Assembly (NCBI GenBank): GCA_008690995.1
Contig: VRMN01000019.1
Span: 62,001-126,000, forward strand
Length of the DNA stretch: 64,000 bases
Direction: 5' to 3'
DNA from: Porphyridium purpureum
Taxonomy: Eukaryota
The notes under the pieces are model-generated. The model had not been told where the DNA came from. It was given only the letters and a program-made list of their open reading frames with translations, and did no database searches. The position numbers were made by a program, and so were the translations under genes. Of the stretch, positions 1 to 52,891 are shown piece after piece. Within the stretch, counting starts at the first letter, position 1, and the number at the start of each line of letters is the position of its first letter.

Positions 1-649
1 GCCCTGCTGATACTTTGGGTCATGCTCAAGTTAGTCTGAGAAGTGCGGGCGCGACTGCTTCTATGGATTTGGCTCAAAGGTACAGTCTGGCTATGACGTG
101 CGTTCTGACAAAGTGTTGTGAGTATTTTCGACATTTTCGCTTCCAAAGACGAATTGCATTTGTCGCAAAAATCACGGGTTGCGTCCCGGAAGGAGTTCTT
201 CAGATTGCACGGAGACAAATCGGTACCACGTCCGCCAGCCGTCTAGCCACGGGCGTGCGCAAGCACGAGCACGGAGCGGTATGCTATTACCCTCAGGCGC
301 TCACCTTGTGCTTTGCAAAAGGTGTTTATCTCCACGCAATAAAAGTCTTATCTATCTCCTTGCCTCGTCCGACACTTTGACCTCCGAAGGCAAGTACGAC
401 GGCTATGCTATACAGGCGAGAATGCACTATTCAAACTGATCCTGTCGGGTAGACAAGATTATGACTGGAAAATCATGACACTAGAAGGGAATATGAGATC
501 GAGCGCAGCCAACAGCGTTTTCACCACCAAACGCCCAAGAAGACTGAGAGGGTCCAGTGCTACTAGTAAAGCACCTTTTACCATACGCCTATGTGTCAGA
601 GCCTCTAACTAAAACTCTACGCTACATCCCACAGAGCTGCCTGCTCGGT

Positions 650-908
650 CCGGCTTAAGTACCTTCTCCCGAGCCTCGGACTTCTGCTCGCGTGCGGGTT
701 TCGGATGGTGTTGGCGTTCGAACCCGGCACGTATGCGAAGTGCGGCCGTATCGGCTAATGGCCGCCCGGAGTGGTTTCGAAAACATACCTCCTTTCGCTG
801 TACCCCGAACCGATATTAAGTACAGCTTGGGGAGTGACAGGACGACCTGGTTTCTTCCACGTAACAGCATTTAAAAAAAAAAAAAAAACAAAAAAAAAAA
901 AAAAAAAA
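650..908 (+). mobile_element. Probable 3' end of a poly(A)-tailed non-LTR retroelement (LINE/SINE-like); 5' boundary unknown
   Basis: Templated A-tract 873-908 (one C at 889), preceded by stem-loops at 692-730, 742-765 and 798-826 and directly abutting a 5'-truncated Fanzor frame. No RT ORF or target-site duplication visible. Confidence 0.45.
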
Positions 909-1123
909 CCGGTTCGAAATTGGTGCTTGTCAATGAGGCCTATACCTCGAAAACGTGCAGCGCGTGTGGAACCGTAAACGCGAACCTGGGCGGCGCCAAG
1001 ACTTTTAAATGTCGCTCCAGCGCGTGCGGAGCGGTCATGGACCGCGACATCAGCGGCGCAAAGAACATTTTATTGCGCAATCACAAAGCGCTGGGGATTT
1101 CGGTCCCCAGCATTGGAGCCTGA
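905..1123 (+). pseudogene. 5'-truncated Fanzor2/TnpB-like RNA-guided endonuclease (C-terminal RuvC plus zinc finger)
   Basis: Frame reads (K)TGSKLVLVNEAYTSKTCSACGTVNANLGGAKTFKCRSSACGAVMDRDISGAKNILLRN: E-x-YTSK motif, CxxC...CxxxxC zinc ribbon and DRD-x-x-GAKNI RuvC-III motif typical of TnpB/Fanzor. Confidence 0.88.
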
Positions 1124-1213
1124 CCCTACTGGGCAAACCCGGTGCACAGTGTCTCGGGACACCGCCAAACTTGATGTTCGGATCAGGCGTCGGCTTCCGG
1201 CAAAATTGTTTAA
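1090..1213 (+). ncRNA. Candidate Fanzor omega-RNA scaffold and guide at the transposon right end
   Basis: Consecutive hairpins overlapping and following the stop codon: 1090-1111 (UUCG loop), 1128-1143, 1149-1162, 1170-1187. Possible pseudoknot GCCTGA 1118-1123 with TCAGGC 1183-1188. The position matches where TnpB/Fanzor omega-RNAs are encoded. Confidence 0.6.
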
Positions 1214-1371: not shown

Positions 1372-3750
1372 CTAGTTCTGGTCACCGCCGACCGAGTACC
1401 GCAGTAGACTGTATGTCATGGCAAGCGTCAGCGAGATGAGTGTGACTAGCGGACCGACCTTCAGCCATCTGATGAAGGAAATGGCGTGGCCCGAGCGGTT
1501 TGCAATACCGACAACGACCAGGTTGGCACTCGCACCGATGAGTGTCATGTTGCCGCCCAAGCACGCACCCAGCGCAAGTGACCAGATCAGTGGGTTGATG
1601 GGCAGCAGAAGTTCCGGGTCACGCGAGAGCTGCACGACCACGGGCACCATGGCGAGTGTGTAAGGAATGTTGTCCAGGATGCCCGAAATGATACCAGAAA
1701 CCCAGATAAAGATCACGATCGCCACGGTAAGCTGCTGGCTTTGATCGACGCTCTTGATCCAACCGGCGATCACGTCACCGATCCACGCGATAAGGCCCAT
1801 CTCTGCGAGCGACTCGATGGTGATGAACAAGACAATAAAGAAAAGCAGCAAGTCCCACTCGACCGACTCCATCGTGTGATGCAAGTCATGCGGTTCGCTC
1901 AGCAGCATCAGCCCCACGGCTCCTGCCAACGCAACCCACGGCGCATGCACGTGGTGCACGGGCTCTGTGAAGAACAGGATGATGACTGATGTAAAGACGA
2001 TGCCGCACTTGGCCAGCAGCACCTTCTTTCGGATGCGGTACTCCTTCTTCATCTCTTCGACGTCCAGAAAGTCGGCGTCGGCCGCAAACTCCTTTCGGTA
2101 CCACCAGCGCACGAAGAAAATGCACACCAGGAAGATCACAATCACGATCGGTGCCAGATTGACCAGGAAGTCCACAAAGCCGACGTACTCGGAGAGCGCA
2201 GTGCCAATGATGATGTTCGGCGGGTCTCCGATCATCGTCGCGGTTCCACCAATGTTGGAAAAGATCGCCTCTGAAATGAGGAATGGCACCGGGTCGATTT
2301 TCATGGCCGTGCAGATGTTGATGGTCACGGGCGCGATAAGAAGCACGGTTGTCACATTGTCCAAGAAGGCAGACAGAAACGCCGTGATCGTGCACAAAAT
2401 GTAGAACAGCCGTGTAGACTTGCCACCGCTCCACTGGTATGACAGCACGGCCATGTATTCGAAGATCCCCGTGGTGCTCAGGACGTGCACGATGATCATC
2501 ATGCCGAATAGGAGCACAATCACGCCAGAGTCAATGTGCGCCCACGCATCCACGAGACTGGGCGCCTTGTCGAAGATAACGAGGAAGAAGATGGCAATGA
2601 ACATGGCCATAAACGCAGAAAGCGTGCGATGCACCACGTCAGTCATGATGAGAATGAACAGAAAGATCAGGATGAGCCCGGCAATCACCACCTGGTGGCG
2701 GCCAATGGCCTGCGACTGGTGGGAGTGAATGATCACACCAATGGGCGTTGGCGAGTTTGTACGCACCAGCACCACAGGCATCTGCTGCTCCGGATTCGTA
2801 ATGGACGCCAGCTCGGACGTCTTGAATTCCACCAGCAGCGCAAAGTCCTCAAACTTTGACTCTTCGTACACGTCGTCGAGTGCGACAAAGTCTTGCTCTG
2901 GGTCGGCGCAGTTGTTCGCACAATATCCGGCTTGCGCCGACAGCGTCAAGTTTTGCGATTCGTCAACGGGCTCCTGCGCCCCCGCCACGCCAGAAAATTC
3001 GACGAAACTGAGTGATTTGTGCGTATCAAGCGGGTAGTAAAGGGGCTGCGCATCAGATACGCCGAACGTGTGCTTCCAGTCCGGATCGTGGTGCACGCCG
3101 GGTCCCAGGATGAAGATAGCCACCGCGATACCGACGCAGCATATGAATGTGATGGCCAGCATAATATAGTCGCGGCGACCAAACTCCTCGTCCAGCACAC
3201 CCTTGCCAAGCTCGGCCTCGAGCTCTGCTTCCACCTCGGCAATCTCTGCCTCGCGGTCCTCTCTACGCTTTAGGCGGTACATGGCAGTGTCCACACTCTT
3301 TCGACCGCTGATGATCGAGTCCTCCGAGTATGGCACCACGCTCCCGCTGGAGCGACGGTTCCGGAGCGTGGACGGCCGCGACACGCTGCTGTAGCGATGC
3401 CCGCTCGCGCTGGACGGCCGACTGGTCGCGCCAATGAGATTATCGGCGTCAGTGCCGCCATACTCGCCGGCGCCCTGCACATAGTCTGGCAGCACCTGCT
3501 GAATGGAGCGCCGGCCCGTGTGGTACTCTGCCACCTTGTTCCGGAGCTTGCGGCGCTCCGTCTCCTTCGGATCCTCGGGCGCCAACACACTCCCGAGCAG
3601 CGAGGGCCGCGACTGCGACGGCCGCGCAGACGACGGCCTGGACGCGTCGCCATGCTCGCCGAACCCTGCTGGCGCGGCATCATCAATCTCCACAATAATC
3701 TGCGGCGCGTCCTCGACATCGGCGTCTAGCCGGCTGGCCTTGTTCCCCAT
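1372..3750 (-). CDS. OCA2/P-protein-like ArsB/NhaD (CitMHS-type) multi-pass transporter
   Basis: Motifs LSAFLDNVTTVLLIAPV, SNIGGTATMIGDPPNIII, LDNIPYT and ALGACLGGNMTLIGASAN; many TM segments. First ATG (MGNKAS) at 3750. Confidence 0.9.
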   Translation of the reverse strand: MGNKASRLDADVEDAPQIIVEIDDAAPAGFGEHGDASRPSSARPSQSRPSLLGSVLAPEDPKETERRKLRNKVAEYHTGRRSIQQVLPDYVQGAGEYGGTDADNLIGATSRPSSASGHRYSSVSRPSTLRNRRSSGSVVPYSEDSIISGRKSVDTAMYRLKRREDREAEIAEVEAELEAELGKGVLDEEFGRRDYIMLAITFICCVGIAVAIFILGPGVHHDPDWKHTFGVSDAQPLYYPLDTHKSLSFVEFSGVAGAQEPVDESQNLTLSAQAGYCANNCADPEQDFVALDDVYEESKFEDFALLVEFKTSELASITNPEQQMPVVLVRTNSPTPIGVIIHSHQSQAIGRHQVVIAGLILIFLFILIMTDVVHRTLSAFMAMFIAIFFLVIFDKAPSLVDAWAHIDSGVIVLLFGMMIIVHVLSTTGIFEYMAVLSYQWSGGKSTRLFYILCTITAFLSAFLDNVTTVLLIAPVTINICTAMKIDPVPFLISEAIFSNIGGTATMIGDPPNIIIGTALSEYVGFVDFLVNLAPIVIVIFLVCIFFVRWWYRKEFAADADFLDVEEMKKEYRIRKKVLLAKCGIVFTSVIILFFTEPVHHVHAPWVALAGAVGLMLLSEPHDLHHTMESVEWDLLLFFIVLFITIESLAEMGLIAWIGDVIAGWIKSVDQSQQLTVAIVIFIWVSGIISGILDNIPYTLAMVPVVVQLSRDPELLLPINPLIWSLALGACLGGNMTLIGASANLVVVGIANRSGHAISFIRWLKVGPLVTLISLTLAMTYSLLRYSVGGDQN

Positions 3751-6732
3751 TCCACGCGCCTCGCGCGCGCGCACGCTCGTGCGCCTGCCTCACACCTACC
3801 CGCACCACCGCGGCGCCGCTACCCACGCCCTTCGCACCACCGCAACAGCTCTCCTCCCCCGACCGCACGCACGACGTGTCGCCGATACACCTCTCCACCA
3901 AGCCACCGAGAAACCAACCACCAGCCTTGCAGTCTGCTTGTGCCCAGCTCTCCTTACACCTTCCTCGCCGTCCGCTCCTCCCCAGAAGACCACCGCGCGC
4001 GCAACCACTCTACCGACGCCGGACAATAACCTCAACCGCGCACGTCGCCGCGCCTTATCCTGCTGCCACCACGCCGCCACGCCGCCGCTTCTCTCCCCGC
4101 CGCGCGTTCACTGCCACTGCTTCTACCCACCCACCGCACTCCAATTAACGCCCGGCCGGTCGCCGCTCCGCACATCACGTAACGCGCGCCGAAAATATCA
4201 TAAAACAGCGTTACTTGTATAGTAACTATGCGCGTGCGCGACTCGGCTGTACAAAACGGGCGGGTTGCAGCGCTTCGCATTCCTCTGCAATGCATAGCTA
4301 TCAATATTACTAAAAAGGCACATTTTAGTAGAGCGATGTAATTTGGGACGCGCTGGTGGAATGCGTGTGAGGGACAGGATGTACAGTGGGTACAGTGCGA
4401 CACTTAAAGATTTGCGAACGGCTGCGCGTGCAGCTGAGCGCGGACGTGGCGGGGTGTGGAGCGGCGCGGTCTGCGCTGCGTGCGGCGTTGACGGTGCGGC
4501 TGGCGAGCGTGCGCTGCCGCCTCCGGTCGGCGCGGCTCGCGCGTTGCTCAGCTGTCGCGGGTGGAACGCTTGGCAAAGGGAGAGAGAGAGATATATATAT
4601 ATTTGCAGAAATGCAAGTTTGGCAGGGAGCAGCGCAGAACAGCGAGCGAGGGCGTGGCATACGCGCGACGTGGAGAGATGAGCAACAAGTCTGGTCTGTG
4701 GAGTTGGATGAGCGCGGCGTGCGGAGAAGAATCGTGAGAGGGGCGGCGTTGTATCTCGCAGCCGGTTTCGGAGCAGTTGTGCGGCCAACGTCACAAGAGT
4801 TGGCACTGGCATAGCTCGCTGATAAGCACGTCTCCACCCGTACAGCATGGTTTTCTGGTATTCGGGTTGGTCGTTGTTTCGTATGAGCACATAGATGTGT
4901 CGTACTTCCTGCAAAAGACATGCTCTTCCTGGACGCGTGGAAAAGCACTAAGAAGAAAGAATGACGCGTCAGCTTGGGTACAGAAAGCTGGGCGATGTAA
5001 ACGAGGCGACATCGTCAAGACTAGATGCAGAGACAATGGCGCTATTGAGAGACGTGCCGGAACAGATGTCATTTCGCCTTGCTGCTTTACTTGCTTGCCT
5101 TGCTATGAAGTGGTTCTTAGTCGGACCCAACAGGGTTCGCTAAAGACGGCCGGCTCGCTTCGTCCGACAGTGCGCGACTTGCTCCGCACAGACGACTCTG
5201 GTAAAGCGGACCTTGAGCGCACGTCGGTATACCCAGCATGCCACAGTGTAGATGTTGACCTGGTCGAGATGAAGGAGTGAAGGGTCGTGTGATTGTTTTA
5301 AAAGAAAGATGGACGGGTGGAAATAGAAGGCGTGGAAAAGGAAGGACACTGTGTTTCTGTACGGAAGACTGCAGTGGAAAGGAGGAGCATTCGTTCAAGG
5401 CTCGTGAGCTGCACTATCAAATGAGCAGGACTTCGTGGAATGTCAATTAACGCATGATATCATTCCATGTGATCCGTCCAACGAGCTGAAGTACCCTTTC
5501 CTTTCGACGCTATTGATGAAGCACGGAAAAAGTATATCGTTTTCCATTTCCGGAGGCTACGGACTGATGAGTTCCAAGCCGCGATACTTCCTCCACGCGC
5601 ACTGCTACACCGACTCTCCATTACGTTGCCTTCCGTCCACAGCACATTGCGCGCTTGAATCACCTCGCCTGTGACCGAAGACTACCGCAAAATCACTCGA
5701 ACGACAAACAGTGGCAATCCCCGCAGAGCCACGTCGAAGTATTTTGGCGTCTGAACGACTGTCCCGACGCGGCAACCATTGCTGTTTCCATTTTGACAAA
5801 GCGAAACTGTCTTTTCGACAACCGCTCTGCCGCATCATCAGCCACTGGATTGCATGGCACTAGCCAACGGCTATCCAGCATTTGCTGCCACCAGGCAGTG
5901 ACTGACCATACGAACCAAACCACACGCCTGGAGTCTTTCCTCCTTCCTGCTCACCTCCAGACCACTCGGCCCCGCAGACCACTCGGCACGCCTCATTCCT
6001 TTGTCATCCCACACCCATTCCGAGCAATGTGCATTCCAATGCAATGCGCATTCCGCGTCCTCTCACTGTACCGCCACCCTGTCTGGCAATGCTGCAGTGC
6101 AACGACATCTCCAACCCCTCGCGCTCGATCGCCGCGTCGTTTCCATACTAAAACGGTGCCGTTTTATGATTTACGGGCTCTTGGAATGGCGGAGCGAATG
6201 CGGTTCAACTGCGGACCGGTTTATCGGTTCAATTGCCAGTGGGAGGTGGCGGGCGGTGGCAGTTGAGCGAGGTCTTGATGTGGCATGTGGCGCGGCGCTG
6301 CGGTGCGGAGTGTCGCATGCGGCCATCATGTGCTACCGCTCACGCGCGCGTTCACGCGCCCGCGCACAATTGCGCCATGGCGTCTCAATGGCGTGTTTCG
6401 TGCTGCGCGCGTATGGGCACGTGAGGGCAGCGCTGGTTGCCAATGTGAAGACGGTCGCTATATCTGCGGGCAGTAGCCGTGCGATGGGTACAAGGAAGCG
6501 CGACCTGCGAATGCCGTCGTCGTGAGCTTATGAATATTGCGGCTCGTCGATTGAGGGTCAGAAAGCGTCTGTGTGCCCGTGCCTGCGCATTGTCCACGCG
6601 TGAGTGTAGAGCTAGAGAGCGACTGCGCGTTGGACAAGATCGACCAGGAGCCGGGCGAGTTCGTCGCTCCGAAGAGGTGGCATACAGCTGGAGCGCACCA
6701 GATTTGCAAGGAAGTAAGGTACTACAATTGCG

Positions 6733-9653: not shown

Positions 9654-11198
9654 ATGGAAAGGCGGGCAGAAGCGCGCAATGTAGTGGCATCAGCCTTTCG
9701 TGCGTGGCTACGCAGTTCATGGCTGAAAACGTGGCGGGCGACACCGAGCCCTGGCGCGCGTGGTGCGAGCTTGACCGCTCGCTTGCGAGGAGGTCTTGGA
9801 GTTGCTCGTGCGACTGTTCTGTGTTTCTTAATCACTTGTGTTCTGCTTCTGTGTGTGCGGGTGCGATATCACGGTACGCACAAGAATGGCGCCGAGCCGT
9901 CTGCCCATGCGCTCGCGCACGACACGCTTGAATATACAGAGAAGAAAAAGGCTCAGCCCGCATTGATAAAAGTGGCATCAAAGACGAACGTGTCATTGCC
10001 GGCGCCTGGACCTGAACTGGCAGGGCCAGCTTCGTCATGCATGCGGCAATGTTCAACAGGAGCGTTCGAGCGCAACACGATTTATTTGCACCAAGATGAC
10101 AAGAGATTCGGAGATGCCGCGCAGGCTGGGCTTTTGGACAGGATTTCGATGCTTGTGCAAATGTGCAACCTGGCGGGTTACTTGTGCGCCCGGCTGATTG
10201 TGCCGCCACCGCGTGCGTGGCTTTCGCCTAAACACAATCGCGGGCATCGCGTGCATGCGGCGCTGCAGTGGACGGACTTTGTGGAGCTACGCTTTAAAAC
10301 CAACGCTAGTAGCAGCTGTCTCGGGCCTCTGCCGAAACCTGGTCTGTCTAATTCTGGCGGTACAAGGACGAAAGCTGAACTGCAGGTAACCACGACGCGA
10401 GTAGCAGACTTGCGACGCGACTTTGATCGCGTGGAGCAAGCAAGCTTCAAGTCGCACGGCAAAGGTGGGATAGACTGGCATATTGACGTGGCGCCGTTCT
10501 ACAAGTGGGACAAAAGCCTAGAAGCTCACATCGTGGCGGAGCGCGCCGGTCGACCAGACGTGCCGCACTCAATGCTTCCGCAGCTCGCCCCTCGAGCGAA
10601 AGCGCATGGTGGTCTGTGCAAGTACGTTCGCGCTTTGAATGCCGATCCTGTGACGCGTCTTGCGAGAGCAGTGCGAACGGCTATCGTGCACGAGGAGCGT
10701 AAGACAACTCCTCACGCGGCTCGCCCTCGTGTTCGAGGGAAGTACCACATTCGACGCGGCGACGCGGTGCGCGAGTGCGACACATCGGTGCAGCGCATTG
10801 CAAAGTTCATCGAGTGCAGCTTTGGGAACCTGAGCTTGGTGGATGAAATGGACATAACACTCTTGTTCCACAGTGACGAACGCGACGCAAAGTACCGCCA
10901 GGCGATCCGAAAACTATTTGAGCGCACCCTGATTCGCGACAACAGCAAGCTCCGTACAGAGACATTCATTGACTTGGACCACCTAGTCGAGCGCACGCTA
11001 AAGGTTGACCGGGGAAGCGGCATCAAGTTCATGAACAACTACCACATCTTTCTCATCATTGGTGCTTTATCCGAACATGTGGACTTTGAAATAGAGCACC
11101 GCCGCAAGTACAACTGTCGCGACTGCGTGCCTGAGCTTGCGCAGCGCATCCGAGACGCCGCGCGGCGTCGCAGCGCCACAATATCGGACGACTGGTAG
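9654..11198 (+). CDS. Type II membrane protein, putative glycosyltransferase (fucosyltransferase-like)
   Basis: Single N-terminal TM (ATVLCFLITCVLLLCV), a GLLDR motif and an HIRRGD motif resembling GT-B fucosyltransferases; long clean ORF. Function is an inference. Confidence 0.55.
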   Translation: MERRAEARNVVASAFRAWLRSSWLKTWRATPSPGARGASLTARLRGGLGVARATVLCFLITCVLLLCVRVRYHGTHKNGAEPSAHALAHDTLEYTEKKKAQPALIKVASKTNVSLPAPGPELAGPASSCMRQCSTGAFERNTIYLHQDDKRFGDAAQAGLLDRISMLVQMCNLAGYLCARLIVPPPRAWLSPKHNRGHRVHAALQWTDFVELRFKTNASSSCLGPLPKPGLSNSGGTRTKAELQVTTTRVADLRRDFDRVEQASFKSHGKGGIDWHIDVAPFYKWDKSLEAHIVAERAGRPDVPHSMLPQLAPRAKAHGGLCKYVRALNADPVTRLARAVRTAIVHEERKTTPHAARPRVRGKYHIRRGDAVRECDTSVQRIAKFIECSFGNLSLVDEMDITLLFHSDERDAKYRQAIRKLFERTLIRDNSKLRTETFIDLDHLVERTLKVDRGSGIKFMNNYHIFLIIGALSEHVDFEIEHRRKYNCRDCVPELAQRIRDAARRRSATISDDW

Positions 11199-12188: not shown

Positions 12189-15100
12189 CACTCGTTTCAT
12201 GTGGCTGAACTTGATTCTCTTTTGTCGATCTGCTGGATGCGTGATCATCCGCCCAGGTGCATAGCCGTGCGCCACCGTGACTTTTCGTGAAGGAAAGAGG
12301 AACGCTGTTGGACGAATTTTCTTTGAACGACGGAAAGCCCAAAGCCCCAAGGATAGTGCATCGATGCGTGAAGACCGAACGTGTTGCTGCACGCTGAGTA
12401 CGACTGTGCTGTGAGGGGGAAAAAAAATCAATGCGAGATGACAGATTTACTCGCGGAAACTGTGTGATATGCAGAAAGTTTACCGAACTCGAGCCTTTCG
12501 CAGTTTTTGAGAGCGTTCCCGCGAAGTGCTGCTGCTCTAAGCACAGACTTTTCGTTGACAACCTGTAAAGATCTCAAGTTTACAGTAGTGCATCGCTCAG
12601 GCTGCGCTTGCTAGGCCGCACGCGCCTCGCCGCCTCCGCCAGCACCACGAAACCAAGCATCAAACTCCAGCGTACGCCACCTGTGCATCTTGTCGCGACC
12701 CCGTCAGCGCACGCAGCCAGCCGTTTTCGTTGGTAAAGATGAACCGGTTAGTCGTTTAGCTGTTAATGAGCCGCGGCAGTTTTATCCGGTTTGGCGCTAA
12801 ACTGGGTTCGAAAATTTATGTTGCGACGAGGCTACGAGTCCGCGCGCGCTTTCGCATGCGTGTAGACGAACGAGCGCCTACAGCCTTAAGCTGTTGCTGT
12901 TTGCGGTACCCTTTGGGCATCGTGACGAAAGAATGATGATAGTACCGGCGAACTGCTCGCGTAGAGTAAAGGTAGCAATTGGTACGCAGAAGTCTCCTTT
13001 ACGGACGGATTTGTTTGCTGCTTTGATGCGAACTCCCCTTAACAGAGGGAGAGAGACGGAGTGACGAGGTCTATAGAGTGGAGTGCGCTGGCTTATGTAG
13101 GCTGAGCTGACAAAAGCCTACATAGTCAATACAGGGTGGAAGCACGTAGTGAGTAACAGAGACGCGCTGGCACATTGCAAGAACGGCTCACTAACGACTC
13201 CTAGAACTAAAAATTGTGCTCACTGTGAAAATCAACAAGACGCCAGCTCTGCTCACAAATTACGTTGTAAGCTTCTCCTTGGTCTCTGAAGGGTCTGTGT
13301 CTTGTGTGTCCACCGGGACTCGTTGGTCCGACGACAGTGCGTCTGGCGTTGACAATGCGTGTGTCTCCGACCGAGATGAGTAGATTCCTGGCCAGTTTTC
13401 TCTCCGCAGTGTGACGGCTCTGCTCCGTAAAACACACTCCATACTCCTCTCCCTGTCTGCTCTCATCCCGGCATTTTTTTCGTTCAGATGATATGCTTCT
13501 CTTACGGCACCTGCATTGCTCACCGCTGCAATGTTCTCGAGCAGAGTTCCTCTCGAGACGCTGGCGGTCATCCAGCAAGCAATTGTGCAGAAGATTTTCG
13601 CGAAGGTGCTCGAGTGCAATGCTGTGCGAATTTCAAAACACGCACGAGGGGTTACTGCACCGGAGCGACAGGTCGCGGCACGGGCGCAATGCGCCGACCA
13701 TTGACCGCGAGCGCGACCATACAAGGCGGCATATTTTGAGCGGTTCTAATGCGAAGTAGAAGCGGAAAATTAGAAAAGCAGAATGAAAACAAGAGTTTTA
13801 TTCATCAAGATCGACGTGTTTTCTGTTGAACCTCATCGTTCCCAAAGTTTCACCGTACTCATAGTTAAGAACGGAACGAATGGGCCATCGCGATCGCCAC
13901 TTCCTCGGAAGCAGCCAAGAGTTACAACAGTGATTATTTTTGTTTGAACCTTTCCAAGCGCAAAGGCCGGCATGCGACGCGTAGCATTTTCTGAGGCTCG
14001 CAGCAAGGAAAGAGCTGACGCCTTGGTAAGTGTATCATTCTGAGGCATGATCTTAGGCTATTGAGCTGCATCGGCACGATCTGTTCTTATATACCAGCGA
14101 ATAATGCGCGACTGCGGCTGGTACAATCTTTTTTGGCAGTCCAAGTAAAGATGATCGATGTATTCATGAAGAGTCGAACAATTTACTAGGTAGTTGGTTC
14201 TTGCAGGTTCTATTCGTCTCTCGTTCTCCTTTTTTACCTTCTTGGCTTATCGCTCAAGCAAAGCCAGGTAAGACAAACCATGACATTCACGCGAAACTTC
14301 AACTCCGAAAACTTCGAGGTTTCCACTTTGCACACATGCGTACTCAAACAAACAGCGAGCATGTTGCGGCCCCGCAATAAAAGATAAAACAACGCCAGGC
14401 AAGGAGTTGCACCTCCACGCGAGCGTATCTGTCCGGAAACACTCTTCTGAACAGCATCCAAACTAACTCTCCGCAACTCACACTCAGCGGCTACACCCTG
14501 CCCGAATGGATGAATCCAAGACATTATAAAAGTAGTTTCGTCGCCACAAATCCATGCTGTTCAAATTTCTAACTGTATCGATCCCAGGTTAACTCTACGG
14601 ACTTTATACGTGAGTCCTGGCGCTAAAGAAACCAAGGCGGCCAAAAAAACCTTGCCAGAACTCCGCGGCGCGCCCGCGTTTACCGGGCCTCTTTACACAT
14701 TTGCCCCCACTTATCCGCCCCGTCCGCATGGCGTACGCGAGTCTGCGGCGCTTCGATTTTGACGGCGGCCCTATCCGTAAAGGCTGACGCCCCGAGCCAG
14801 CCTATACGCGCTTCTGCTTGGTCACGACGGTCGTCGTCACGTCACCCTCTTCTGCAGGCCATCTCAAGCTGTCCTGCAACAAATATTCACATCGCTCATG
14901 ATCTGCAGGTCTCCGGACGTTGAGCAAAGTGCTGATTTGCAAAAGTCGACGCGAATTCAACGTTTCGAATCAAACCTTTTCGTCACATTCGTCAGAGCAC
15001 TCGTTGCGTCAAAAACTGTGTTCTTGTTCACGAGAGCCGAAATTTATACTGCCTTTAATGAAAATGGACACATTTGAAACATCAAGAATACCCGTAGGAA

Positions 15101-16969
15101 AAAGTGCTGCCCTTTTCTTCTTCCCCGCCGCATGGCGTGTCTTTTTCCTCTTCTGCCTGTGCCACGCGGTTATTGCCTGTGGCTCCGCCCATACCACATG
15201 AGCCTTCTTCGGAGACGTCCCCTAGCCAGCTACTCCTTTTTCTGACTCTTAAAGCCATGTCATTCGGAAAGCTTTCAGAACACGGCGGGCGACTTTAAAG
15301 TTATTTGAGCGCGTATGGTGCCATATGAGCCGTCGCCTTGCCCACCGCGTGCGGTATACTATTGTGATTACCTCGATTTCTGTCTACAGGAGTAACGTGC
15401 AAGAATGCGAGCTATTCTGGGAACAATACAAGAACGACAAGCCAGACGATATCAGAGCAATGAAGACCATTCTTGCAAGACATTATTCTTCCTTAAGCTG
15501 TCTTTGCCATGTGTGGAAGAGCTGCGCTTGTACATGTTCTGCAGACTTAAATTTCATTTTCAATGCGTGATGTGGAAGTATTTCGCAAGTGACGCGTACG
15601 ACGCATTTCACGCATATCAACAGAAACCCATTGTGATTACCCTCAAGGCAAGCGATACAGGCTGGCCACGCGGCTATTGTGGCCTTCACTTTAGAGTTTC
15701 TTCTGTATATCCTAGAATCCTTCCACTTCATCCAAGAAAAAGTACTCATTGGAATGGAGGAAAAAATCGTTTTCATCACGAGAGGATCATCCGCGTGTTA
15801 AACGTGTCCCCGAACGTCTTTCACTAGCCGTTGTGCTTGGCGTTATTGATACTCATGCGCGTCTTAACTATTGAAGTTATCAAATAGTTACGATTGGCGA
15901 CTGGAGCCGTGCACAAGTGGCTGACGAAGAGCGATTACGTGCGGAGCCTTATGAAGCGGCAAAGGTGGGAGTCAATCGTGGAAAAGGGACATGCACAAGT
16001 GGAGAGGCAACACGCCGGTATGTAGGGTGCGAGATTTGGCGTTCAGGAGGCGGGAGCAGGTGCGAAGAAGTGAGGAAACGGAAAACGTTCGCACCAGAGC
16101 TTGTGCAAAAGGGTTATGTCGACACACTGCTGGCGCTGAAGCCTTCGCGTAGAGTGAGATGATTGCGAGCTAATTGTGAAATGCGTTTTATTCGGTCTGC
16201 CTGTCGGGGCATGTGATGAACATCTTTTGGCCGCGAAGCGACATCGGACTGCAAACGTGCATCTGCCGGCTTCTTTGGTATACGTTGATGGTGCGAGCTG
16301 AACAAACTTTGACTGTTTCAAAATCCCGTTAAGAAGCATAACTGTCTTGTGTGTAAAAGGAGGGTTACGTGGTTTTCGGATCAATCATTTAGGATCGTTC
16401 AATGCTTGGGACTGAAGCAAGGCAAATCGAGCGAGCGGACACGAATACACCGGCTGCTGATCGCTCGGCTTCCTTAGCGGCTGCGGCGAATGTATAGGTG
16501 GTATTCATCGGACGTGTAAATATGCTCCAGGCCTCAATAGCGGCTTTCTCATTTTGTCAGGAACCGGGCTTTTCCGATGTATTTAATCACAACACTTACG
16601 CTGCCTGCTGCTCGGGACATCGACAGACATAAGCTGCTGTCGAGCTCGGTGAACTTTGTCCTGATCGGGATTTGATCTCTCGTCAGCCCCTCCTTGTGTG
16701 CAGCCTTTGAAACGGCCCTCGTCTTCCGGGAGCAAGCAATGGCAAAATAGAGGAGGTCAAACGAGAGCGACGCGGAAGAGATACAGTCCAAAGACTTTCT
16801 TGTACCTAATAGCAGCAAGGAACCCAAATGGCCAACTCCAGCAAGTCAACCACATATTTACGGTACCAAATCCATTGCCTAGCAAGCAGTAGATTCTCCG
16901 GCACGATTCCGGTGTTTCCGATTTACAAAGTCCCGTCGTTCCGGTTTGGTGACAACATTGTCAATGAAG

Positions 16970-17610
16970 TACAGTATTAAACGCTGGACAACTTGTTTTG
17001 CAGTAGACAGCAAGAATCGACGCATCAGAAAAAAAGTAGACTTACAGTGCAAAGCTTCGAAACACGGCTTGACCGACAGATTGTTGCATTTATGGAGAGA
17101 CTGAATGAGTGGCGAAAGCCATCAATCATGAGAGCATGAAACTATGGAGAGTTGTAGAGCGAGACTTGAGAAAAAGAGAAGAGTGAAGAAGATCCAATTC
17201 TGTATGGAAGACAAGAATCAAAGTTACAGTAATTATTAATGTGAGGCCAATCCCTGTTCTCTGAATGTCACAGCTGACGCGAGTTGTACCGCCGAGCAAC
17301 GCATGTGCACGCTACGCGATATGAACGACACACAAGTGTAAAAGAAAGAGAGGAAGAGAATAAAAAGATTCAAAGAAGTACGGTGCGAAAAGCCCCGGAC
17401 AATTGGTTGGAACAATCGCCTGGTGCAGACGCACCCGCTACTGCATTGGGAGGCCTTTGCAACAATCCCTCGCGCTGATGAGCGCGTGTGGCCAGCACTG
17501 GGGGTTCTTCGGTCTTTCACTTTCACCAAAGCTATGAACGACGTTGATGGCAAAAGATGTTTCAAAACTTTTATTCTATTGGAGATATATAATCTTACGA
17601 TGTCTTGATT
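16970..17610 (+). mobile_element. Possible highly decayed hAT transposase remnant
   Basis: Broken frames give IKRWTTCFAV (cf. hAT TRWxS) and GWNNRLVQTHPLLHWEAFATIPRADERVW (cf. hAT dimerisation-domain W..P.L..A..P...ERVFS), inside a gene-free island. Confidence 0.3.
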
Positions 17611-19013
17611 ACGAAGCGCGCGTTATTGCAGTTCAATATCGTGAAGTTGGAAGATGCCGAATCGACACAGACGATTCTTAGTGAATCGGAATTGGACCAT
17701 GCATAAACTTTTGCAGGATACTAACACTGTGACCGATGAAACAACAAAGTTTGCTGGCTGTAATCATTCTTAATTGGAAAAGGCCGTATATGTTTGGGGC
17801 ATAAACACTTCACAACAATTGGAGTATAGGATGTCTTTTGGTAATGTCGAAAAAATAGTCGACGAAATATGTGGAAGGATGAAGGATGGAAAGAAGAAAC
17901 TTGAAGAGAGAATGGATGGGAACCTTGTGAAGAAAGAATGTGTGACATGAATGCAAAGGCATGGTGCAAAGGTTCAAGATATCAGCACTCTATGGTGAAT
18001 GTGCTGAAGAAAAAATGACACCTGTTTGCGAACGCGATAAAAAGACTCTCGGGAACGTCGCGGAGCAATTTTTCGAGGCAGACATGGCTGAACATCGTGT
18101 ACGAATCGAATTGCGCTCAGATTCTGCTTCATGAACTTTAGCGGTGACCGTGAAAACCGGTTTTATGATAAACGTCTAAAGCCAAAAGCAATAGAGGTAG
18201 GTGAGGAAAATAAAGGAAAGTGCGTCATCATGCTTATGGAAAAAAGAGGCGAACAGAATACCAACAAAATTCATCTGCGTCGGCTGAAATGAACCTTTCG
18301 TCCTTTCTTTGCCCCCGTCTAATCGATGTGGCCACGACGGTAGCGATTACCCATTGATTGAAGTTCCAGAAAAGCAAAAAAGCTGCAGAATTTGTAAAAG
18401 GATGGGTGCTTTGGCTTTGTCAAATTCTTGGTTCGACAACTTGTGAACCTAGATACATTGTTTGCTTCATATACTACTCATATGATGACTCAGACTAGCC
18501 CTACAGATGGTGACTGAGGGAAATGCGACGGAAGACAGGTAGAACTATACTATAAGAGCATGCATCCGTGCGACGGGCAGTGGACTGAACAGCGGATAGC
18601 GTCCAGCGTCTCATCGTCGACATGTTGTGACACTGTGAACAGAAAAAAGGCCCGCTCGGTGCTTTGCTTGTTCTTTCGTACGAGAGCGGGGAAAGCTGCC
18701 GGCGCGGAGGTAGTAGCGAGAACTTAGGTTCACATACTTTTGTCGCGAGTTGGTGGAAAAGGAATGCTTGATCTTCCTTCTGAATGGTACAGATGCTCCT
18801 CTCGCGTGCGCCGCGCTACCCAAACGCGCGGCCGGCCCAGCGTTTCGTCGCGAAGAAGTGTACCCACTGTACCGTAACACGAGCACGCGTTGCGCGGGAG
18901 CCTATAAAACCGCGTGCGTTTTAGTATGAAAACGCAGTAGGTGTTGGCGGACGTGCGCGGGTGGTGGCAGAGAGGAGAGAGAGAGAGAAAGAGAGAGAGC
19001 GGGACGGGGCGAG

Positions 19014-27721: not shown

Positions 27722-29315
27722 GCAACGCGCTCGGCGCCAAGTATATGCGGCGCTGTAGAGGACAGACTTTGTCGAGCTACGCTACACAATCAACGCCAAC
27801 GCCGGATGTCAAGCGGCGAATGCACCACATACGAACTCGCGCTGCGTCTGTGGCGCTCTACAGGCACGTGCTGGCAGAACGATGCAAAGATTATGGCACA
27901 TAACGCGTCACAAATCAGCATGCCACACCGCACCAGAGCGTGTTCGCCATCTTCAAGCGGTGCGACAAGATGGAGCCACCTCTTCCCATCCTATGCTCTT
28001 GTCAGAGCATGTGGAAGCGTAAACCTTTCCATGACCGAAGCCTTCTGCGTTTTTTTGCTTTTAACAAGGAGTGCGCACTGCATCCGCAAAGAGATTGATC
28101 TAATAAAGCGTTGCGCGCCATAAAATACATTTTTTGGGGGGAGAATGCAACGTATTCACGCGGCACTTTGAGAAATGCCACGAACGTCCGAGTGCTTCGC
28201 GCGAATCTCCCTTGTCGCGGCTCGTTTGCATCGAGCAAACTCGCGAGGGCAAGAAAGGTATTGATTTCAATGGGTTCACGGGTCGGTTCCACGAAGAAAC
28301 GAAGGAAAAGTTGGAAAGGAGGCTCCGAAATTAGTTGGTGGTTCTTTTGTCAGTATAAGTGGCCTGAATTAACCAAGAAATCCGTCGTCACGAGCGTGTT
28401 TTTCCTCCTTCCGTATTCTCTGTCAACCAGAGTCAAAACTGCCGGACAGGAACTTTCCGTCGCTCAACGAGCGGTCGCGTGCGGTTGGTGTTCGCACACC
28501 GCTGACTGGGACGTCGTTGCGCGACGAGAAGAATCACGGAAAATCTACAGACACTTACAGGTATCTTGCAAATGTCTCGGTGGGACAGCGTATAAATAGG
28601 TGCGTCGACACCTACGAGGCAAGGCAGGCATGCGAAGAATGGTCGCTATATTTGTCAACATACAGGTGTCTTACATTCGACCAATTGGGGTGAGGGTACC
28701 TGAGGCAACGTCGTCGTTGACGTCGACATAGACGAAGAAGAACTAAACGAGGAACAAAAAGAGTGTGACAAAACACGCAGGTTTACTGAAGGCCTTTGAG
28801 GCAACGTTCTGCAGTTTCTTCGTCTTGCGACGGTTAATGACTACCCAGAGTGGTTTCGAAACAGTGCCTCCACTCGCTGTACCACCTTAAATCTGTAACG
28901 TTGGTGAGTATAGCTTGGGGCGGAACAGGACGATCTCGTTTCTGTCACGGATGCAAACACGAAAAAAGGAGCATCAGAGGATTGTCTTTGTCAATCTTAA
29001 TCAAATTCTGAGCAAAATTTTAGTGAATACTGTAACTCATCCAGCACTGCACATCCTTCCATGCTTTGACCCGTTCAGTCATGTGAAACGTTTACGCCGT
29101 GACATACGACTATTCCCGATCAAGTAACAATCAATCGCAAGAATTCGCGCCGAGCCGCCACCTCTCTCCCCGCTATCCACGCTGAAAGCATGCTCTGCTA
29201 TGGCTCTTTTCATAGCCGAACCAAAGAATCACACAATTACTTTGCAGGCTACCTTTTCAACCAAGAATCGTCAAAGCATAAATATGCTGTTCCATCGAAC
29301 GGGTCCCCATGTCAA

Positions 29316-29597
29316 TCAGAAAGATACGTGGTCAGGGCGAAGCGTGTTCAGGATGTTCGTAAACATCACGCTTTGCAGATAGTATTTCACTGTTTCGCCG
29401 TTCATTGCATGTGGCTTCGACTTGATGAATTTGAAATTGCTTTTGGCAGTTCCAAACCACCATTCCACCTCTACTCTCCCTCGTTTCAAGCTCAAATGCA
29501 ATCGTACTCGAACATGTCCTCGTCGTGGATCACTTGAAATACTACGCCCCGTCGTGTACGGACGAATGATTCGCTGTGCTCGAGCGTACCCGGAGTG
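29316..29597 (-). mobile_element. PIF/Harbinger-superfamily (DDE_Tnp_4-like) transposase C-terminal remnant
   Basis: One minus-strand frame reads HSGYARAQRIIRPY...RGRVEVEWWFGTAKSNFKF...KYYLQSVMFTNILNTL, matching the DSGY...PY / R..VE..FG / TN motifs. First D appears as H, with a stop just upstream. Confidence 0.6.
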
Positions 29598-30229
29598 TTA
29601 CCAATGCTGAGCCTTTATTTTCTGCTTCTTCTCTTCTCTCCGAGCAAGACCTGACCGGCTAGTCCGGGCTGGCGCGTCGCCTTTTTATACCCGTACTTCC
29701 GCCAGGGACAGCAAGGCGCCACGAGAAATGACAATGCAAATCATTGACATTTCTGCGCGCGTCTAGAAGGTTCTGGAACCTCTAGCTTCTAGAAACGATT
29801 AAACGGTCTACCGGTTTAACAGCTTACCATTTTCGGATTAGCCGAACCGTTTTAGGTGACTGGGGTCGAACGGAAAACAGTCTGCGCGTTCGTGTGTTTG
29901 GGCGCCTGTGTTTTCGCAAGCGTGCCTGTGTGCCTGTGCGCGTGCCTGCAAGTGCCTGCGTGTGCGCCAGTGTGCGCGTGTGCGTGGGCAAGAAAAAGAC
30001 GAACAAATTATGAGCCGGAAGCTACCGGAGGCGCGAAACTTGTGGCAGACATTGAGGGCTTTGAATAACAATGCTTTTCAAATATCTGCTCGTCAAAGAA
30101 ACGGAGGAACGAGTTAACGGTGTTCGAAAAGTTGCTCTTCTTCAGTAGCCTGTAAATGGTGAGCACAGTTCATTCGTACGGACGTAAAAAGCTTTCATTA
30201 CATTGGAGCGCAGTGGGTGGTGGATTAAA

Positions 30230-32146
30230 CGCCCAAAGCGACCTTCAATGCAAATTTGTAATTGCACCAACGAAGCCGATGCTTTCGGTGCACGCTTTCG
30301 CTGGAGCGCGTTGTACTTTGCGCCAAGCCGTGAGGGTCTCGCGCTGGCGCTTGTTCTTCACATTTTGAGGTATAAGATTCCGCACCTGGGCAGACTGCTG
30401 GCTGGTATCTTTCGCCGCCATATGTGCCTTCCTTCATCGTGTGGCCGGTGGCAGCATACTGTTTTGGGACTTTCTATTCCCACCGTACTCGGCCACCTTT
30501 TGCAGTAGGTCGCGTGGCGGATCGACGGCTAGTAATCAATAGATTTCGCTTCTTTTCCTGGTCTTCAAGAAGCTGTTCTACGCCCGCCTTGGTGGCATGT
30601 GGCGCAGGCGAATCTTCTACCCGGAAACACTCTCGCAACTTTTCGAATAAACTTCCGCCGCCGCCGCGCGCTTCGACCATTTCAATTTTCGCAAGAATAT
30701 GCACGATTGCCGGTCTTCCGGTTTCTCGCGCCAAATTCCTTGCCGGAGAGTTCCGTTACCCAGTCGTTGCGAAAGCATCGAGCTCTTGGACCAAAGCTTC
30801 TCTTTGGAAAATGCAGAACGGCGATAGTGATGCATTGGTCCAAGTATTGCAAAAAGAGAGTTGTGTCAGTAGATGGGTGAAGCAACGCAGTGCCAAAGAA
30901 CAGGCTAGAGACAAGAACTACAATGATGTGACCAATGAAAGCAGTGACTTTGCGCGCGTCATACCGGAGGGCTATTAAGCATCTTTCCAGTAAAAAATGG
31001 CATCTCCTGTTTGCACTCGGCCGGGTTGCTCTTCTTCATTTCAAACGCTGCTCTCTCAGCAGCTTGGTCTCCACATAATGCAAATTTGACGAACAACTCT
31101 TGAAGTCCGGCGATGCGCCATCGGCGACACAAGAACACGTCCATCAGCGGAGGGCCATCTTCTGTATCCGACGCACAGTGCGTCGTTGCACATTTTCTGT
31201 CGGAATGAGTCCCGAAATCTGATGTTTCGTGCCTAAGCGTCGCCAACTCCAGACGCAGGTCCTCGCATACCTTCTGTCCAGCCCTACGTTGGACGTTAGC
31301 CATGCTAACAGAGCCAATAAAGACGTGGCGCTTGTTCAAACTCGGCGTGACCCAAAGGTACAGCGCCAGCGCCAAACTGGACATCCGCCCGGGTTTGCTG
31401 GGTTGCTGCACACGTGCTTTGGCGCTTCGCACCCATTGTTTCCTTCTTGGTCGGTCTTGGAGTGCGAGAACTTCACAACTAGGGCGTCTCTCGACCATGT
31501 CACGTTGTTTACCGTAATCAGTCGAGTGACCTCGGCGCGGCAGAAAAGAAACCAGAAGAGGGCATGGAATGCAAGTGCAAAGAAACTGGGAGAGATAGAA
31601 GAATTGCCGAGGAGAAATGCTCTACATACAAGAATTTAAGTAGAGTATGTTAAAGCACATGCTCCGGGTTCTTTGCTTGGTTCTTCCACCCGCCGACGCG
31701 CTACACCACGCCGATGAGCCTAGAACATGTTTTTGATAAGCACACTCCTCATGAACTTTGGCATCATCACACCAGTGTCCGAGAAGTGATTGAACACGTT
31801 AGAGCGCACAGTTTTCGGGAATGTGCTGCCTGCACCGTCCGCATCAACCAGCCCCTTGTAAATGGTCGGCATTATCTCCTCTGTTGGATAGCCAAGAAGC
31901 TGCAGAAGATGCCGGTTTGCTGGAAACACGGGCGAGAAGAGCGAATTGATCAACTGACTGTTCTGCCGGACCCGATGGCCGTCTAATTCCATGGTCTTCC
32001 ATGTAATGCGCGAGTACGTACTTCAGAAACTTGCGCTGATTAGGCAGGTACGTTTTGTGAGTCCCTGTGGTATTACGGCCGCGCGCTAGCTCCGCGACCT
32101 TTGCACTCGCGCGCTCACGCCGCACAGCTGCTGTAAATCCCTTCAT
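30230..32146 (-). mobile_element. Decayed Crypton-type DNA transposon (tyrosine recombinase pseudogene)
   Basis: Across frameshifts the minus strand gives RNTTGTHKTYLPNQRKF; WFLFCRAE...VTWSRDALVVKFSHSKTDQEG...PKHVCSNPANPGGCPV/LALALYLW; DFGTHSDRKCATT...GPP...RRW...GDQAAER; VLWHCVASPIY; ETGRPAIVHIL. This is the motif order of CryptonS-like recombinases. Confidence 0.8.
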
Positions 32147-34514
32147 TGTTTGAACTTTGCGTGACTACAAGGACGTAAGCGCAAGCATGTTTCAGCGCAA
32201 TCGGTTTATTACATTTTCGGTTCGTGGCGGTAAAAAGTAATCATTCCAGTACAAGAAAAGCTTTAAATTCTCGCACGCTTGATGATGACAAGCGCACGAA
32301 CCCGGATGACACAACCCTTCTCAGATGACCGAACCCCAGCAACACGACGCACACAGCACAGAGAACACAACCACACGACGCACACAACACAGACGACGAA
32401 TACCCGGGGCGTGGAAAATCCAACGTATAGGGCCTCTACTACTGCCCTTCGCGTCGGCACAGACAGCACCGGTCTCGACAGGGGCAGGGTGTCGTAACGG
32501 ACAAAGCCGCCGTCTGCCTTCAGTGCTCTAAGAGCACCGAAACCCCCCAGACACGATGTGCTGCTGGCTCTGCTACACAGGCTCAGCAAAAGGCCCCACG
32601 CCTTCCGACGACCACGCCCAGGCACCGACACCAAAGAACAACTCTTCCTTTATTCTCTGTGTCCTACTCCCTTGCCTCTACTTCTTCCGCTCTCAAGGAA
32701 ATCCGGGGGACCGCACAGGCCCGCGCCCATTATATACCCCGCCGTCCTTGCTGTCCTTGACGCGGAAGGGAGAAATTATTTCTCCCAAAAGCTGGGCTTT
32801 TCTCCGTTCGTTCCACAAAACGAAGCCACAGCCAGCCACGTCAGCAAGCGGCTCAATGGGTGCTGGCCGGCCGCCAAGCGGCTCCTGCTTCCCTCGGACA
32901 CGCGACTTCGGCTCCTCAGGGCGAAAGACAACAATGCACAAACCAGAGGTACAGGGTAAAAAACCACGCGGGCGAAAAAGCCCCTGTACCTCAAACAATT
33001 CCAAGACGCCGTACCTCTAGGTGTCCACCCAGGGCGTCTCTCGGACCGGAACACTTTTAATCCATGAAAAGGTGCCGGAATAGCTCGTTCGTGTCCGCAT
33101 TAATGGCTATGTAACACGTCAAATGATGTTTGCCACTGTTTAAGCAAAATTATGTCTGGCGGAGACTTACAGGGAGCGGGTCTCCCCGGCACCTTGAACC
33201 TTGGGAAATGGACCGAAAATGACACGAAATGTGCTAAGGCCAAATTTTACGAGGAAATGGGCGCCAGCTGTGTTCACAACCAGAAAGAAAATTCAGTCTA
33301 AGTGGGCTACACAGGAACGAAATAGCGTGATTTGAGCGTGCACAAGGTGGTTTAAACTCTCCGGTCTAAATACTTTGGTGGCCATTGATAGATAGTTTAG
33401 TGCGCCTACTCTGTGACAGGAAAGTTTAACCCTCATTTGCGTGAAGAAACTTTTCTAGCTGCACATAATGTTCCCATGCTTTGCGTTGACGATGCGCTGA
33501 GCGGCCGTTGTAAAAAGGTGGGATCAAGCTTGACTGTTCCAGATCACGCGGCACCAATGCTCATTTTCCTCCGGCCGAAGAAATTTAGGAGTGGAGACAA
33601 GGTGGAGCTTCTGGTCTGGCCAAGCCGTGCTCGCTGGACTTCACTATTGTGAATAACCGGTAAATGTCCTAGAACGCAAGCTTTACGAAGGTGCACAACA
33701 GTTCTTTACTGTGCAGCGGCTCAAGCATGCCATCGGACTGGCTCAAGAGACTTTGGCACATCCGCTGTCCCGGCCAATTTGCGCGTCGCGCTTTTGCCGA
33801 AAGGCGTGTGCGGCTATGCGCATTTGCCAGGCGCACACGTGCAAGCAAACCGCGACCGACTCCGACTTTTTTATCTCACAAGCAGCCAGGAATGCGCTGC
33901 GCTCGCAACCTCTGTGCGCGCCACGTCGCGTTTTTCGCCACAGTGCTGCCTCGTTTCTATAGTAAATTGGGTTATTTTAGTAGGAAAAAAGCAATAGAGC
34001 GTTGCGTTTTGGTCTTGTGCCTGGTGCGCACGGGAGATTTGTCGCACGCTCGCACGCACTCAGCGGCGGCCGCGACGGCTTGCGGCATTTGGGGTGACGC
34101 GGCGCGCGCATCGGTTCCAACGCGCTCCAACGGCGTGCTTGGGTGCTGACGCTTTCAGCTCGCGTGGACGTGTGCGTGCGTTGGCCGTGTCAGCAGCTGC
34201 GTTTGCCGGTGCGGGTGGTCGTGAGGGTCGAGCGGCTTGGCTGTTTTGTGCCGAGGTGTCCCGGTGCTCATACGCTCGTGTCGCGCACAGAGCAGGATGA
34301 ACGTGTCGTGCGGCAGTGGCGCGCATGGGTGAGAAAAAGATGTCCGAAGTCACTGGGCTTATTCTAAGTCGATTGTGATTGGTCACTTGATTGTTTGGCA
34401 TTGCCACACGTATCACGTTGCGCTGTATCAGGCGGAGCGACGCACATTGGGCTCAGACGATCGGCGTGCAATCGAGGCGTTCGCTGCGATTCCAGCCAAG
34501 AATTGCACGGCATC

Positions 34515-52225: not shown

Positions 52226-52891
52226 TTTGTTTCTCCTGCCGGTCGGAGCGAGCACGGGCTGTACAAACAATGACGGTCTTTCGCTTGGGTGCAGAGAAAA
52301 GTTAGCCTGGCTCTAAATCTTTTGCGGTGCGTAGTATCGGTGCTATGATCTGGAGACAATGCCGGTGCATTGATCCTGCTAGATTCCATCTCGATAGCGC
52401 AGCCCGCGGAGACTCCGCCGGCAAACATGAATCATGGAAGAAGGTAAAGTGCTCTGAGAGAACATCTGCATGCGTAAAAATTGACAAGTTGACTGCGTGT
52501 GCTCGTGATATCGACCTGACATATGCTGATATGGCATTGCGACACTATTCTAGGTGCGCGCTGCACGGAATAATTGAGGAATGCGATCACTTTATTTCAT
52601 ACGAAGGCAGCAAGCCCACCCTATTTGCTTTCAACTTTGCACCGTCAAGATTGGTGCAGGTTCAAGACGAGGCTGTTGTAAGCTGTCTGCAGTCTTGAGC
52701 AAAGCGTAATGCTCTAGTGCTTTCAGCAGAGCGGAGGAGTTTAGTAGGTAAATTAAGCATTAGATGATAATTTTGAGAGCCTGCGCGGCATGAAAAAAAG
52801 TCTGTCAAGATACGTCCAGATGCCCATTCTTACGTTCTGCACCGTCTTCTTCTTCTTCTTCTCGCATATCATGACGCGGCAGACCTCGGAA

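Follow-up and report, generated by a model that had tools for sequence, protein, structure and literature searches.

Fanzors have already been described from red algae, as the Fanzor1 family CMe-1A (Bao and Jurka 2013, PMC3627910) and as 'rhodophyta' in PMC10530073. The published signature of Fanzors and pro-Fanzors is a DPG motif combined with proline at the canonical RuvC-II site and a shifted catalytic glutamate (PMC10711439; preprint 10.1101/2023.08.09.552727; PMC10530073). A guide-RNA pseudoknot is needed for an IS607 TnpB and has been predicted for Fanzor2 (PMC10711439), and Fanzor1 is described without one (PMC11832414, PMC10711439). Here we describe a locus in a 64,000-nt stretch of DNA from the red alga Porphyridium purpureum (the window, to which all positions refer), in which an original prediction had placed the tail of a Fanzor2-type nuclease at 905..1123. 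Very probably, 909-1189 represents the right end of a transposon of IS607 type, made up of the last ~70 Fanzor2 codons and a predicted guide-RNA scaffold; the 5' ~87% of the element has gone, and a poly-A-tailed repeat that inserted there is the likely cause (Table 1).

Table 1. Features of the remnant and its surroundings, in window positions
Feature	Position	Strand	Basis
320-nt repeat in high copy, bounded by TGTC...GACA and containing AATAAA; likely solo LTR	161..480	+	Contig pieces from three runs begin or stop at 161 and 480/481; ends
Unclassified multi-copy repeat that runs into the poly-A; likely from the 3' end of a non-LTR retroelement	481..872	+	70.6% copy at 28831-28949; high summed X1 depth
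Poly-A tract at which the element breaks off (A16 C A19); the upstream repeat's likely tail	873..908	+	Sequence; no listed contig bridges it (867-919 skipped)
Right-end remnant (281 nt) of IS607-type Fanzor2 element	909..1189	+	Protein homology from 911; end motif GGATCAGGCG aligned with relatives' GGAGTAGGCG; other copies' contigs stop matching at 1189-1191
5'-truncated Fanzor2 frame lacking a start codon; ~70 final codons, with TGA stop at 1121-1123	911..1123	+	PF07282 E 3.5e-15; 72-75% identity to P0001-P0003 over 99% of query
Shifted RuvC-II catalytic Glu (NEAYTSK), equivalent to ApmFz2 E467	935..937	+	Alignment to 9b0l; invariant in alignment A1; E467 catalytic per PMC10530073, PMC11832414
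C4 zinc finger, C-x2-C ... C-x4-C, Cys codons 956, 965, 1010, 1025	956..1027	+	Sequence; all four Cys are invariant across alignment A1
RuvC-III catalytic Asp (second D of MDRD), equivalent to ApmFz2 D501	1046..1048	+	Alignment to 9b0l; D501 catalytic per PMC11832414
Predicted omegaRNA (reRNA) scaffold with a 5' hairpin (1090-1111), a pseudoknot and three short stems; overlaps the final 11 codons	1088..1189	+	Covariance model; folding z -2.7
Predicted pseudoknot: hairpin 1115-1127, loop CCUGA (1119-1123) paired with UCAGG (1183-1187)	1115..1187	+	5 loop pairs in 12/12 sequences
Host flank that would form the guide	1190..1209	+	IS607 rule, PMC10711439
CitMHS/ArsB-type membrane transporter gene, convergent with the remnant	1372..3789	-	PF03600 E 1.6e-84; on 11.7-kb X1 contig starting at 1190

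A truncated Fanzor2 frame in a red-algal genome

Read in frame +2, the remnant starts with SKLVLVNEAYTSKTCSACGTVNANLGGAKTFKCRSSACGAVMDRDISGAKNILLRN... and goes on through SKLVLVNEAYTSKTCSACG...LGGAKTFKCRSSACGAVMDRDISGAKNILLRN...SIGA to its stop codon. The tail scored 56.3 bits against PF07282 (Cas12f1-like_TNB; Pfam cut-off 26.3), with five other listed Pfam families all under their cut-offs, and its C-terminal TNB (zinc ribbon) domain has the [TS][TS]xxC4...RD motif of the TnpB/Fanzor superfamily. The best PDB sequence matches were UnCas12m4a (1e-8) and mimivirus L79 (9b0l, ApmFz2; 6.5e-8), bearing out, together with the Pfam match, the in-frame RuvC/zinc-finger tail of a TnpB-family nuclease that had been proposed. 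The predicted shift of the catalytic Glu, just before YTSK, was also correct, as this residue aligns on L79 E467, where UnCas12m4a and the Cas12f-type chains shown have proline, and stands six residues before the zinc finger (NEAYTSKTC), the position found in Fanzors and pro-Fanzors. The second Cys pair of the finger is spaced C-x4-C, as in 41 of the 210 homologs with a parsable motif, and the RuvC-III Asp is followed by Ser, a residue shared by 10 of 229 homologs against 191 with the conserved Asn.

The extent first proposed was right for the frame and its end and wrong for its start, as homology begins at 908-917 depending on the homolog (mostly at 911) and 905-908 is the end of the poly-A tract; the element itself runs 66 nt beyond the stop. 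Similarly, of the catalytic residues and four Cys that had been called intact, the Cys and the remaining Glu and Asp are present, i.e., two of three catalytic residues, and the RuvC-I Asp (DPG) has gone with ~90% of the protein, leaving about a tenth of the gene. No upstream Fanzor sequence was found in the window, where 120 homolog queries matched only 908-1159, apart from three weak hits (E 0.017-0.034); with ~70 residues left and no upstream homology, a complete D-E-D triad with WED and REC in one ORF is absent. Without the RuvC-I Asp, WED, REC and a start codon, this copy encodes no nuclease. Its left end is absent as well, hence it has nothing to move with, and the part of the element corresponding to TnpA, the serine recombinase, is deleted here; 120 TnpA homolog queries gave no match in the window. 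A retrocopy of a Fanzor transcript was rejected because the poly-A stands 5' of the frame.

Over its full length the tail shares 65-75% identity with the closest proteins, and the match takes in a C-terminal extension missing from the more distant rows of alignment A1. Complete full-length relatives measure 562-705 aa, have long N-terminal extensions and combine the DPG motif with a proline at the canonical RuvC-II position and a shifted Glu; across the 13 A1 relatives that cover the RuvC-I site, which is deleted in the window copy, 12 have DPG and one EPG. A profile of 15 close relatives matched ApmFz2 at 2.7e-38 and the next PDB chain at 1.1e-13, with no Fanzor1 chain among its 21 matches at E<=0.01 and none matched by the tail either. 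The close loci are compact ~2-kb elements in which the Fanzor2 gene overlaps an IS607 serine recombinase in another frame, and the IS607 transposase model NF033518 was above its cut-off in all four loci tested, so that the linked recombinase, absent from the window, was found in the closest relatives. Among the 120 listed of 581 TnpA matches, no protein was named from P. purpureum.

A quick 98-row tree places the fragment in a 22-row group (SH-aLRT 99) that includes none of the 14 GTDB bacterial rows. In a careful tree of 49 rows, the group is parted from 11 GTDB rows by a 99/88 branch but is unresolved at the root, and the fragment, filling 32% of the columns, lies in no starred group. Tree rows were loci thinned at 80% similarity (79 of the 200 loci hit) plus 18 proteins, without Fanzor1; in both trees the group lies outside the GTDB bacterial branch. 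The original assignment to Fanzor2 of IS607 type is borne out by the alignment to ApmFz2, the relatives' profile, the TnpA of the relatives and the quick tree. Of the features of Fanzor1, namely a sequence match, no pseudoknot and a non-IS607 transposon, none was seen, a pseudoknot being predicted and the relatives being IS607 elements.

Relatives came from metagenome, giant-virus and eukaryote contigs: L081 (the same record as L008) lies in a giant-virus MAG, L013 adjoins a eukaryotic E1-enzyme gene, NCBI assigns P0013, from a contig of 4,090 nt, to a Paceibacterota MAG, and most other close loci have no known host. In a search for a viral donor in which 126 loci were checked for a Fanzor match, the window-type scaffold pattern gave at least 120 stretches, none with such a match, and the relative-type pattern gave six, of which one was real, the L008/L081 record already known. 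Several relatives show further peculiarities. The TnpA frames at L003:379, L004:279, L008:3241 and L009:3271 start CTG-GC (LA...) after AT-rich DNA with no ATG near, making a CUG start possible, and in L001, L003, L008, L009 and L011 the Fanzor2 frame lies over nearly the whole TnpA in a long dual-coding stretch (in L003, 358-1128 and 428-2350). Open Fanzor2 frames with TnpA and complete right ends occur at L001:84-2198 and L003:428-2350 and are natural candidates for TAM assays.

The host was identified through an FtsY-like (cpFtsY) gene at 51143-52222 that is 100% identical to a P. purpureum protein, the next named hits being from other red algae. This match, along with the near single-copy depth of the remnant in sequencing run X1, places it in a eukaryotic genome and agrees with the algal nuclear location given at the outset. 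Elsewhere in the window are an RNA-dependent RNA polymerase gene (PF05183) with CCCH zinc fingers at 54617-58353 (+), spread over two overlapping frames by an intron, a frameshift or an assembly error, a tandem WRKY19-type zinc-finger repeat gene at 59138-60139 (+; PF24906, E 2e-48) and an (AGGCAT)n hexamer tandem array at 52870-53019. A 52-nt direct repeat (10255-10306 and 27745-27796, 85%), possibly a gene fragment, has one copy in a coding region and the other just behind another gene.

Predicted guide-RNA scaffold and right end

The original prediction overlooked the most informative part of the locus, a predicted guide-RNA scaffold that reaches the right end (1088-1189). A covariance model (R1) built from 10 relatives, with the window left out, matched exactly this stretch at 50.1 bits (E 1.7e-10, a rough value), the next best match in the window reaching 12 bits; Rfam gave no match in 1-1500 at E<=5. 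In the relatives, a G-rich/C-rich hairpin carries a loop, CCUAC, that pairs with a terminal GUAGG, whereas the window has CCUGA with UCAGG. All 12 sequences keep the five loop pairs, and only the window swaps two of them on both sides (A-U to G-C and C-G to A-U); both compensatory swaps lie in one lineage and count as one history. In a shuffle control, 3 of 500 reached the window's pairing. The loop change also makes the TGA stop, and the hairpin of the window's pseudoknot contains an A-C mismatch. The model match and the two swaps together predict an omegaRNA with a pseudoknot at the right end, as expected of a Fanzor2. The scaffold core measures 72 nt, compared to 99-122 nt in 10 relatives, a difference that comes mostly from a far shorter third stem.

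The right end was placed by comparison with the relatives, as a AGTAGGCG end followed by unrelated flanks occurs in 13 of 13 close loci (two of which are one record) versus 1 of 79 bacterial (GTDB) loci. L004 and L005 are 99% identical up to the end base and unrelated beyond it. The window's GGATCAGGCG aligns at this point, the relatives sharing the end AGGCG, after which they vary. In L001, L003, L004 and L011, the AT-rich left part likewise follows a CG, which lies 164-188 nt ahead of TnpA, and from sequence we infer that this left-end CG may be the crossover site; the crossover dinucleotide is likely CG, and the TAM would likely end in CG. CTGGCG near the relatives' TnpA was rejected as a left end, being the start of the TnpA frame. 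Under the IS607 rule the flanking base belongs to the scaffold (PMC10711439), so the guide would begin at 1190. The window holds no second match to 1190-1209 with fewer than three mismatches over 16 nt.

Copies in the species and the cause of truncation

The first 3.8 kb of the window was found in 20 of the 24 public runs listed, and copies were compared by aligning contigs of three runs from three studies (X1, X3 and X10) on 1-1500. X1 behaves as DNA: it contains 920-1083 without a mismatch (100% identity) at depth 141, and a contig of 11.7 kb leads from 1190 into host genes at depth 160.5. X3 and X10 look like RNA libraries, a contig fitting the extent of the neighbour gene, and their contigs show neither level nor strand. 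All three runs contained related copies. At six sites of the remnant the summed X1 depth was 608-1402, with the window's own letter at 141-146 in five, which indicates several copies in the genome, although summed contig depth is not a copy number. Contigs stopped matching at the right end with poorly agreeing flanks in every run (three in X1, two in X3, 2+2 in X10). No listed contig piece crosses 1189/1190; this join depends on the assembly and on a depth calculation, in which ~20 extra bases beyond 1200 stand at depth ~145. The 11.7-kb host contig begins at the first base past the right end; a rare allele lacking the element, or a second branch close to 1220, could account for this.

Some copies are ~96% alike and others ~80%, individual pieces differing from the window at as few as 6 of 148 nt and as many as 43 of 270 nt. 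The most diverged piece aligns with the window without gaps, so the short scaffold and the C-x4-C spacing are family traits. The first inner stem varies among copies yet stays paired (differences at 1128-1134; loose end at 1127). Nine of 13 listed coding differences were synonymous, compared to an expected 24% (p 7e-4), these 13 being drawn from the 40 best-supported of 194 rows and mixing old-copy and private changes; changes private to the window copy stand at 974, 1009, 1053 and 1155. In one diverged copy, a loose end in X10, the Fanzor frame runs on upstream of 975 with a frameshifting loss of 2 nt.

The original prediction also read the tail as evidence of a recently active family that may have full-length copies elsewhere in the genome. 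The family is indeed multi-copy, and only that half is shown: at least one copy is frameshifted, and no protein more than 75% identical to the tail was found among 5.8 billion clusters (171 candidates, 122-2000 aa) or 1.84 billion representatives, leaving present activity unsupported and full-length copies unfound. P. purpureum proteins are in the searched collection; as gene callers often skip repeats, the negative result is weak to moderate evidence against an intact copy. It is quite improbable that P. purpureum keeps an intact autonomous IS607-Fanzor2, which would be the first in a red alga, with a miniaturised guide scaffold of ~100 nt, a re-coded pseudoknot and a CG-ending TAM, and with truncated copies supplying extra guides.

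Upstream of the break, 752-861 has an old copy at 28831-28949 that is likewise trailed by a (decayed) A-rich run. The repeat at 481-872 gave no Pfam, Rfam or tRNA match, and a hammerhead or tRNA-derived SINE was rejected for want of an Rfam or tRNA match. The repeat at 161-480 shows no target-site duplication, and recombination between two loci may have produced it as a solo LTR. No Pfam family was found in any of the 18 read-through frames of 1-872, 12201-18902 and 27901-33902; the gene-poor stretches at 12200-18900 and 27900-33900 have a lower GC content, gave no Pfam match in six read-through frames and are probably decayed repeats. As no listed contig bridges the poly-A junction, the cause of the truncation is unproven; the simplest reading of the break is insertion of a poly-A-tailed retroelement followed by rearrangement, and a composite non-autonomous element or a local misjoin at the poly-A is possible.

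If composite, the repeat at 481-872, the poly-A and the Fanzor tail would form one non-autonomous, 'ghost'-like unit that kept the omegaRNA and right end and was truncated once, in a master copy. Ghost loci have been described for Fanzors (PMC10432273), summed X1 depth is alike across the poly-A (~1000-1270 at 551-800 and 890-1560 at 951-1200), and two joints were dropped at the repeat in X10. We nevertheless consider a single unit rather unlikely, given that ~600 nt upstream in two diverged X1 contigs (records 6 and 7) have no match to the window, that the X10 loose end continues in the Fanzor frame and that the old upstream-repeat copy at 28831-28949 has no Fanzor tail behind it. It is very doubtful that the remnant serves as a stand-alone omegaRNA gene loading a Fanzor2 from an intact copy elsewhere: the complete scaffold with its five intact loop pairs would suit such a role, and ghost omegaRNAs were functional with SpuFz1 (PMC10432273), but neither protein search found an intact protein, and the copy has the four private changes and the mismatched pseudoknot hairpin. 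Bacterial or viral contamination or a chimeric join is extremely improbable: the break is a homopolymer unbridged by short-read contigs, the window's assembly has at least one split gene and P0013 bears a bacterial label, but 920-1083 is found unchanged in X1 at a depth near that of the host contig, related copies occur in all three runs, the fragment stands apart from the GTDB bacterial rows in the quick tree, and the top 79 GTDB loci share 33-47% identity with P0001 and score <=61.6 bits with the tail, against 97.4 for the closest metagenome locus.

For the preferred reading, an IS607-type right end cut off at a poly-A-tailed repeat, the history would be as follows. TnpA would have inserted the parent element by crossover at a dinucleotide, likely CG; transcription through the right end would have given the omegaRNA, with the first ~20 flank bases as guide, and Fanzor2 would have cut empty sites beside the TAM, favouring retention of the element. 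The family may have spread in at least two waves, represented by the ~80% and ~96% copies, with the protein under probable purifying selection, before the repeat insertion likely removed most of this copy.

Novelty and comparison with known systems

In the open literature searched, no report of this Porphyridium family, or of an IS607-type Fanzor2 in a red-algal nucleus, was found. 'Porphyridium' and three tail motifs are absent from the 8 readable of 9 supplement files of PMC10432273, and five tail motifs are absent from data S1 of PMC10530073, whose accessible rows carry no organism names. The supplement of PMC10711439 includes, in its accessible part, two P. purpureum proteins as pattern hits, with sequences apparently unrelated to Fanzor and with none of the five motifs. 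Our verdict is a new host record and a compact-scaffold subfamily of the known IS607-type Fanzor2, with no genuine Porphyridium Fanzor in the accessible supplements of the three censuses. The two pattern hits are presumably TFIIH p44-like and PEX2-like proteins.

A dead fragment is modest news, as Fanzors are known from many eukaryotes including red algae. Its natural covariation, however, backs the pseudoknot proposed for all Fanzor2 scaffolds, and a scaffold half the length of that of ApmFz2 is of use for guide minimisation. The remnant also points to a group of IS607-Fanzor2 elements, ~2 kb in length and with frames still open (L001, L003), that can be assayed now and whose C-terminal signature was not found in the accessible supplements of the three censuses. 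P. purpureum is culturable and transformable, and an intact copy, if found, would let the role of a Fanzor be tested in its own host.

CMe-1A, which we take to be a family of the red alga Cyanidioschyzon merolae, differs in being a Fanzor1 of unknown transposon class, whereas the window copy is a Fanzor2 of IS607 type with a predicted pseudoknot. It is similar in being a Fanzor family of a red-algal genome, with old copies ~80% from the consensus (PMC3627910). Bacterial IS607 TnpB and pro-Fanzors of the ISXfa1 type share DPG and the shifted Glu, the serine recombinase, the dinucleotide crossover and the pseudoknot (PMC10711439), but the GTDB loci form a separate branch, 78 of 79 have no AGTAGGCG-type end, and long N-terminal extensions set the close full-length relatives of the remnant apart.

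NlovFz2 of Naegleria lovaniensis is a nuclear Fanzor2 with the same motifs, and its published TAM, CCG (PMC10432273), ends in CG as does the junction proposed here. The N. lovaniensis homolog P0109, which is not equated with the assayed NlovFz2, is 56% identical to the tail, but it falls outside the window's group in both trees and lacks the ALGISV-type C-terminal extension. In ApmFz2 (ISvMimi, the mimivirus IS607 Fanzor2; PDB 9B0L), E467 and D501 align with the remnant's Glu and Asp, the relatives' profile finds its best structure match, and the element contains an IS607 TnpA as the remnant's relatives do. Its omegaRNA is likewise located at the right end, and the 5' bases of this RNA pair with those immediately preceding the guide (PMC11832414). 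By contrast, its scaffold is 205 nt long and its TAM is GGG (PMC11832414), compared to a model match of 102 nt and an AGGCG end here, and the window copy is a truncated one residing in a red-algal nuclear genome.
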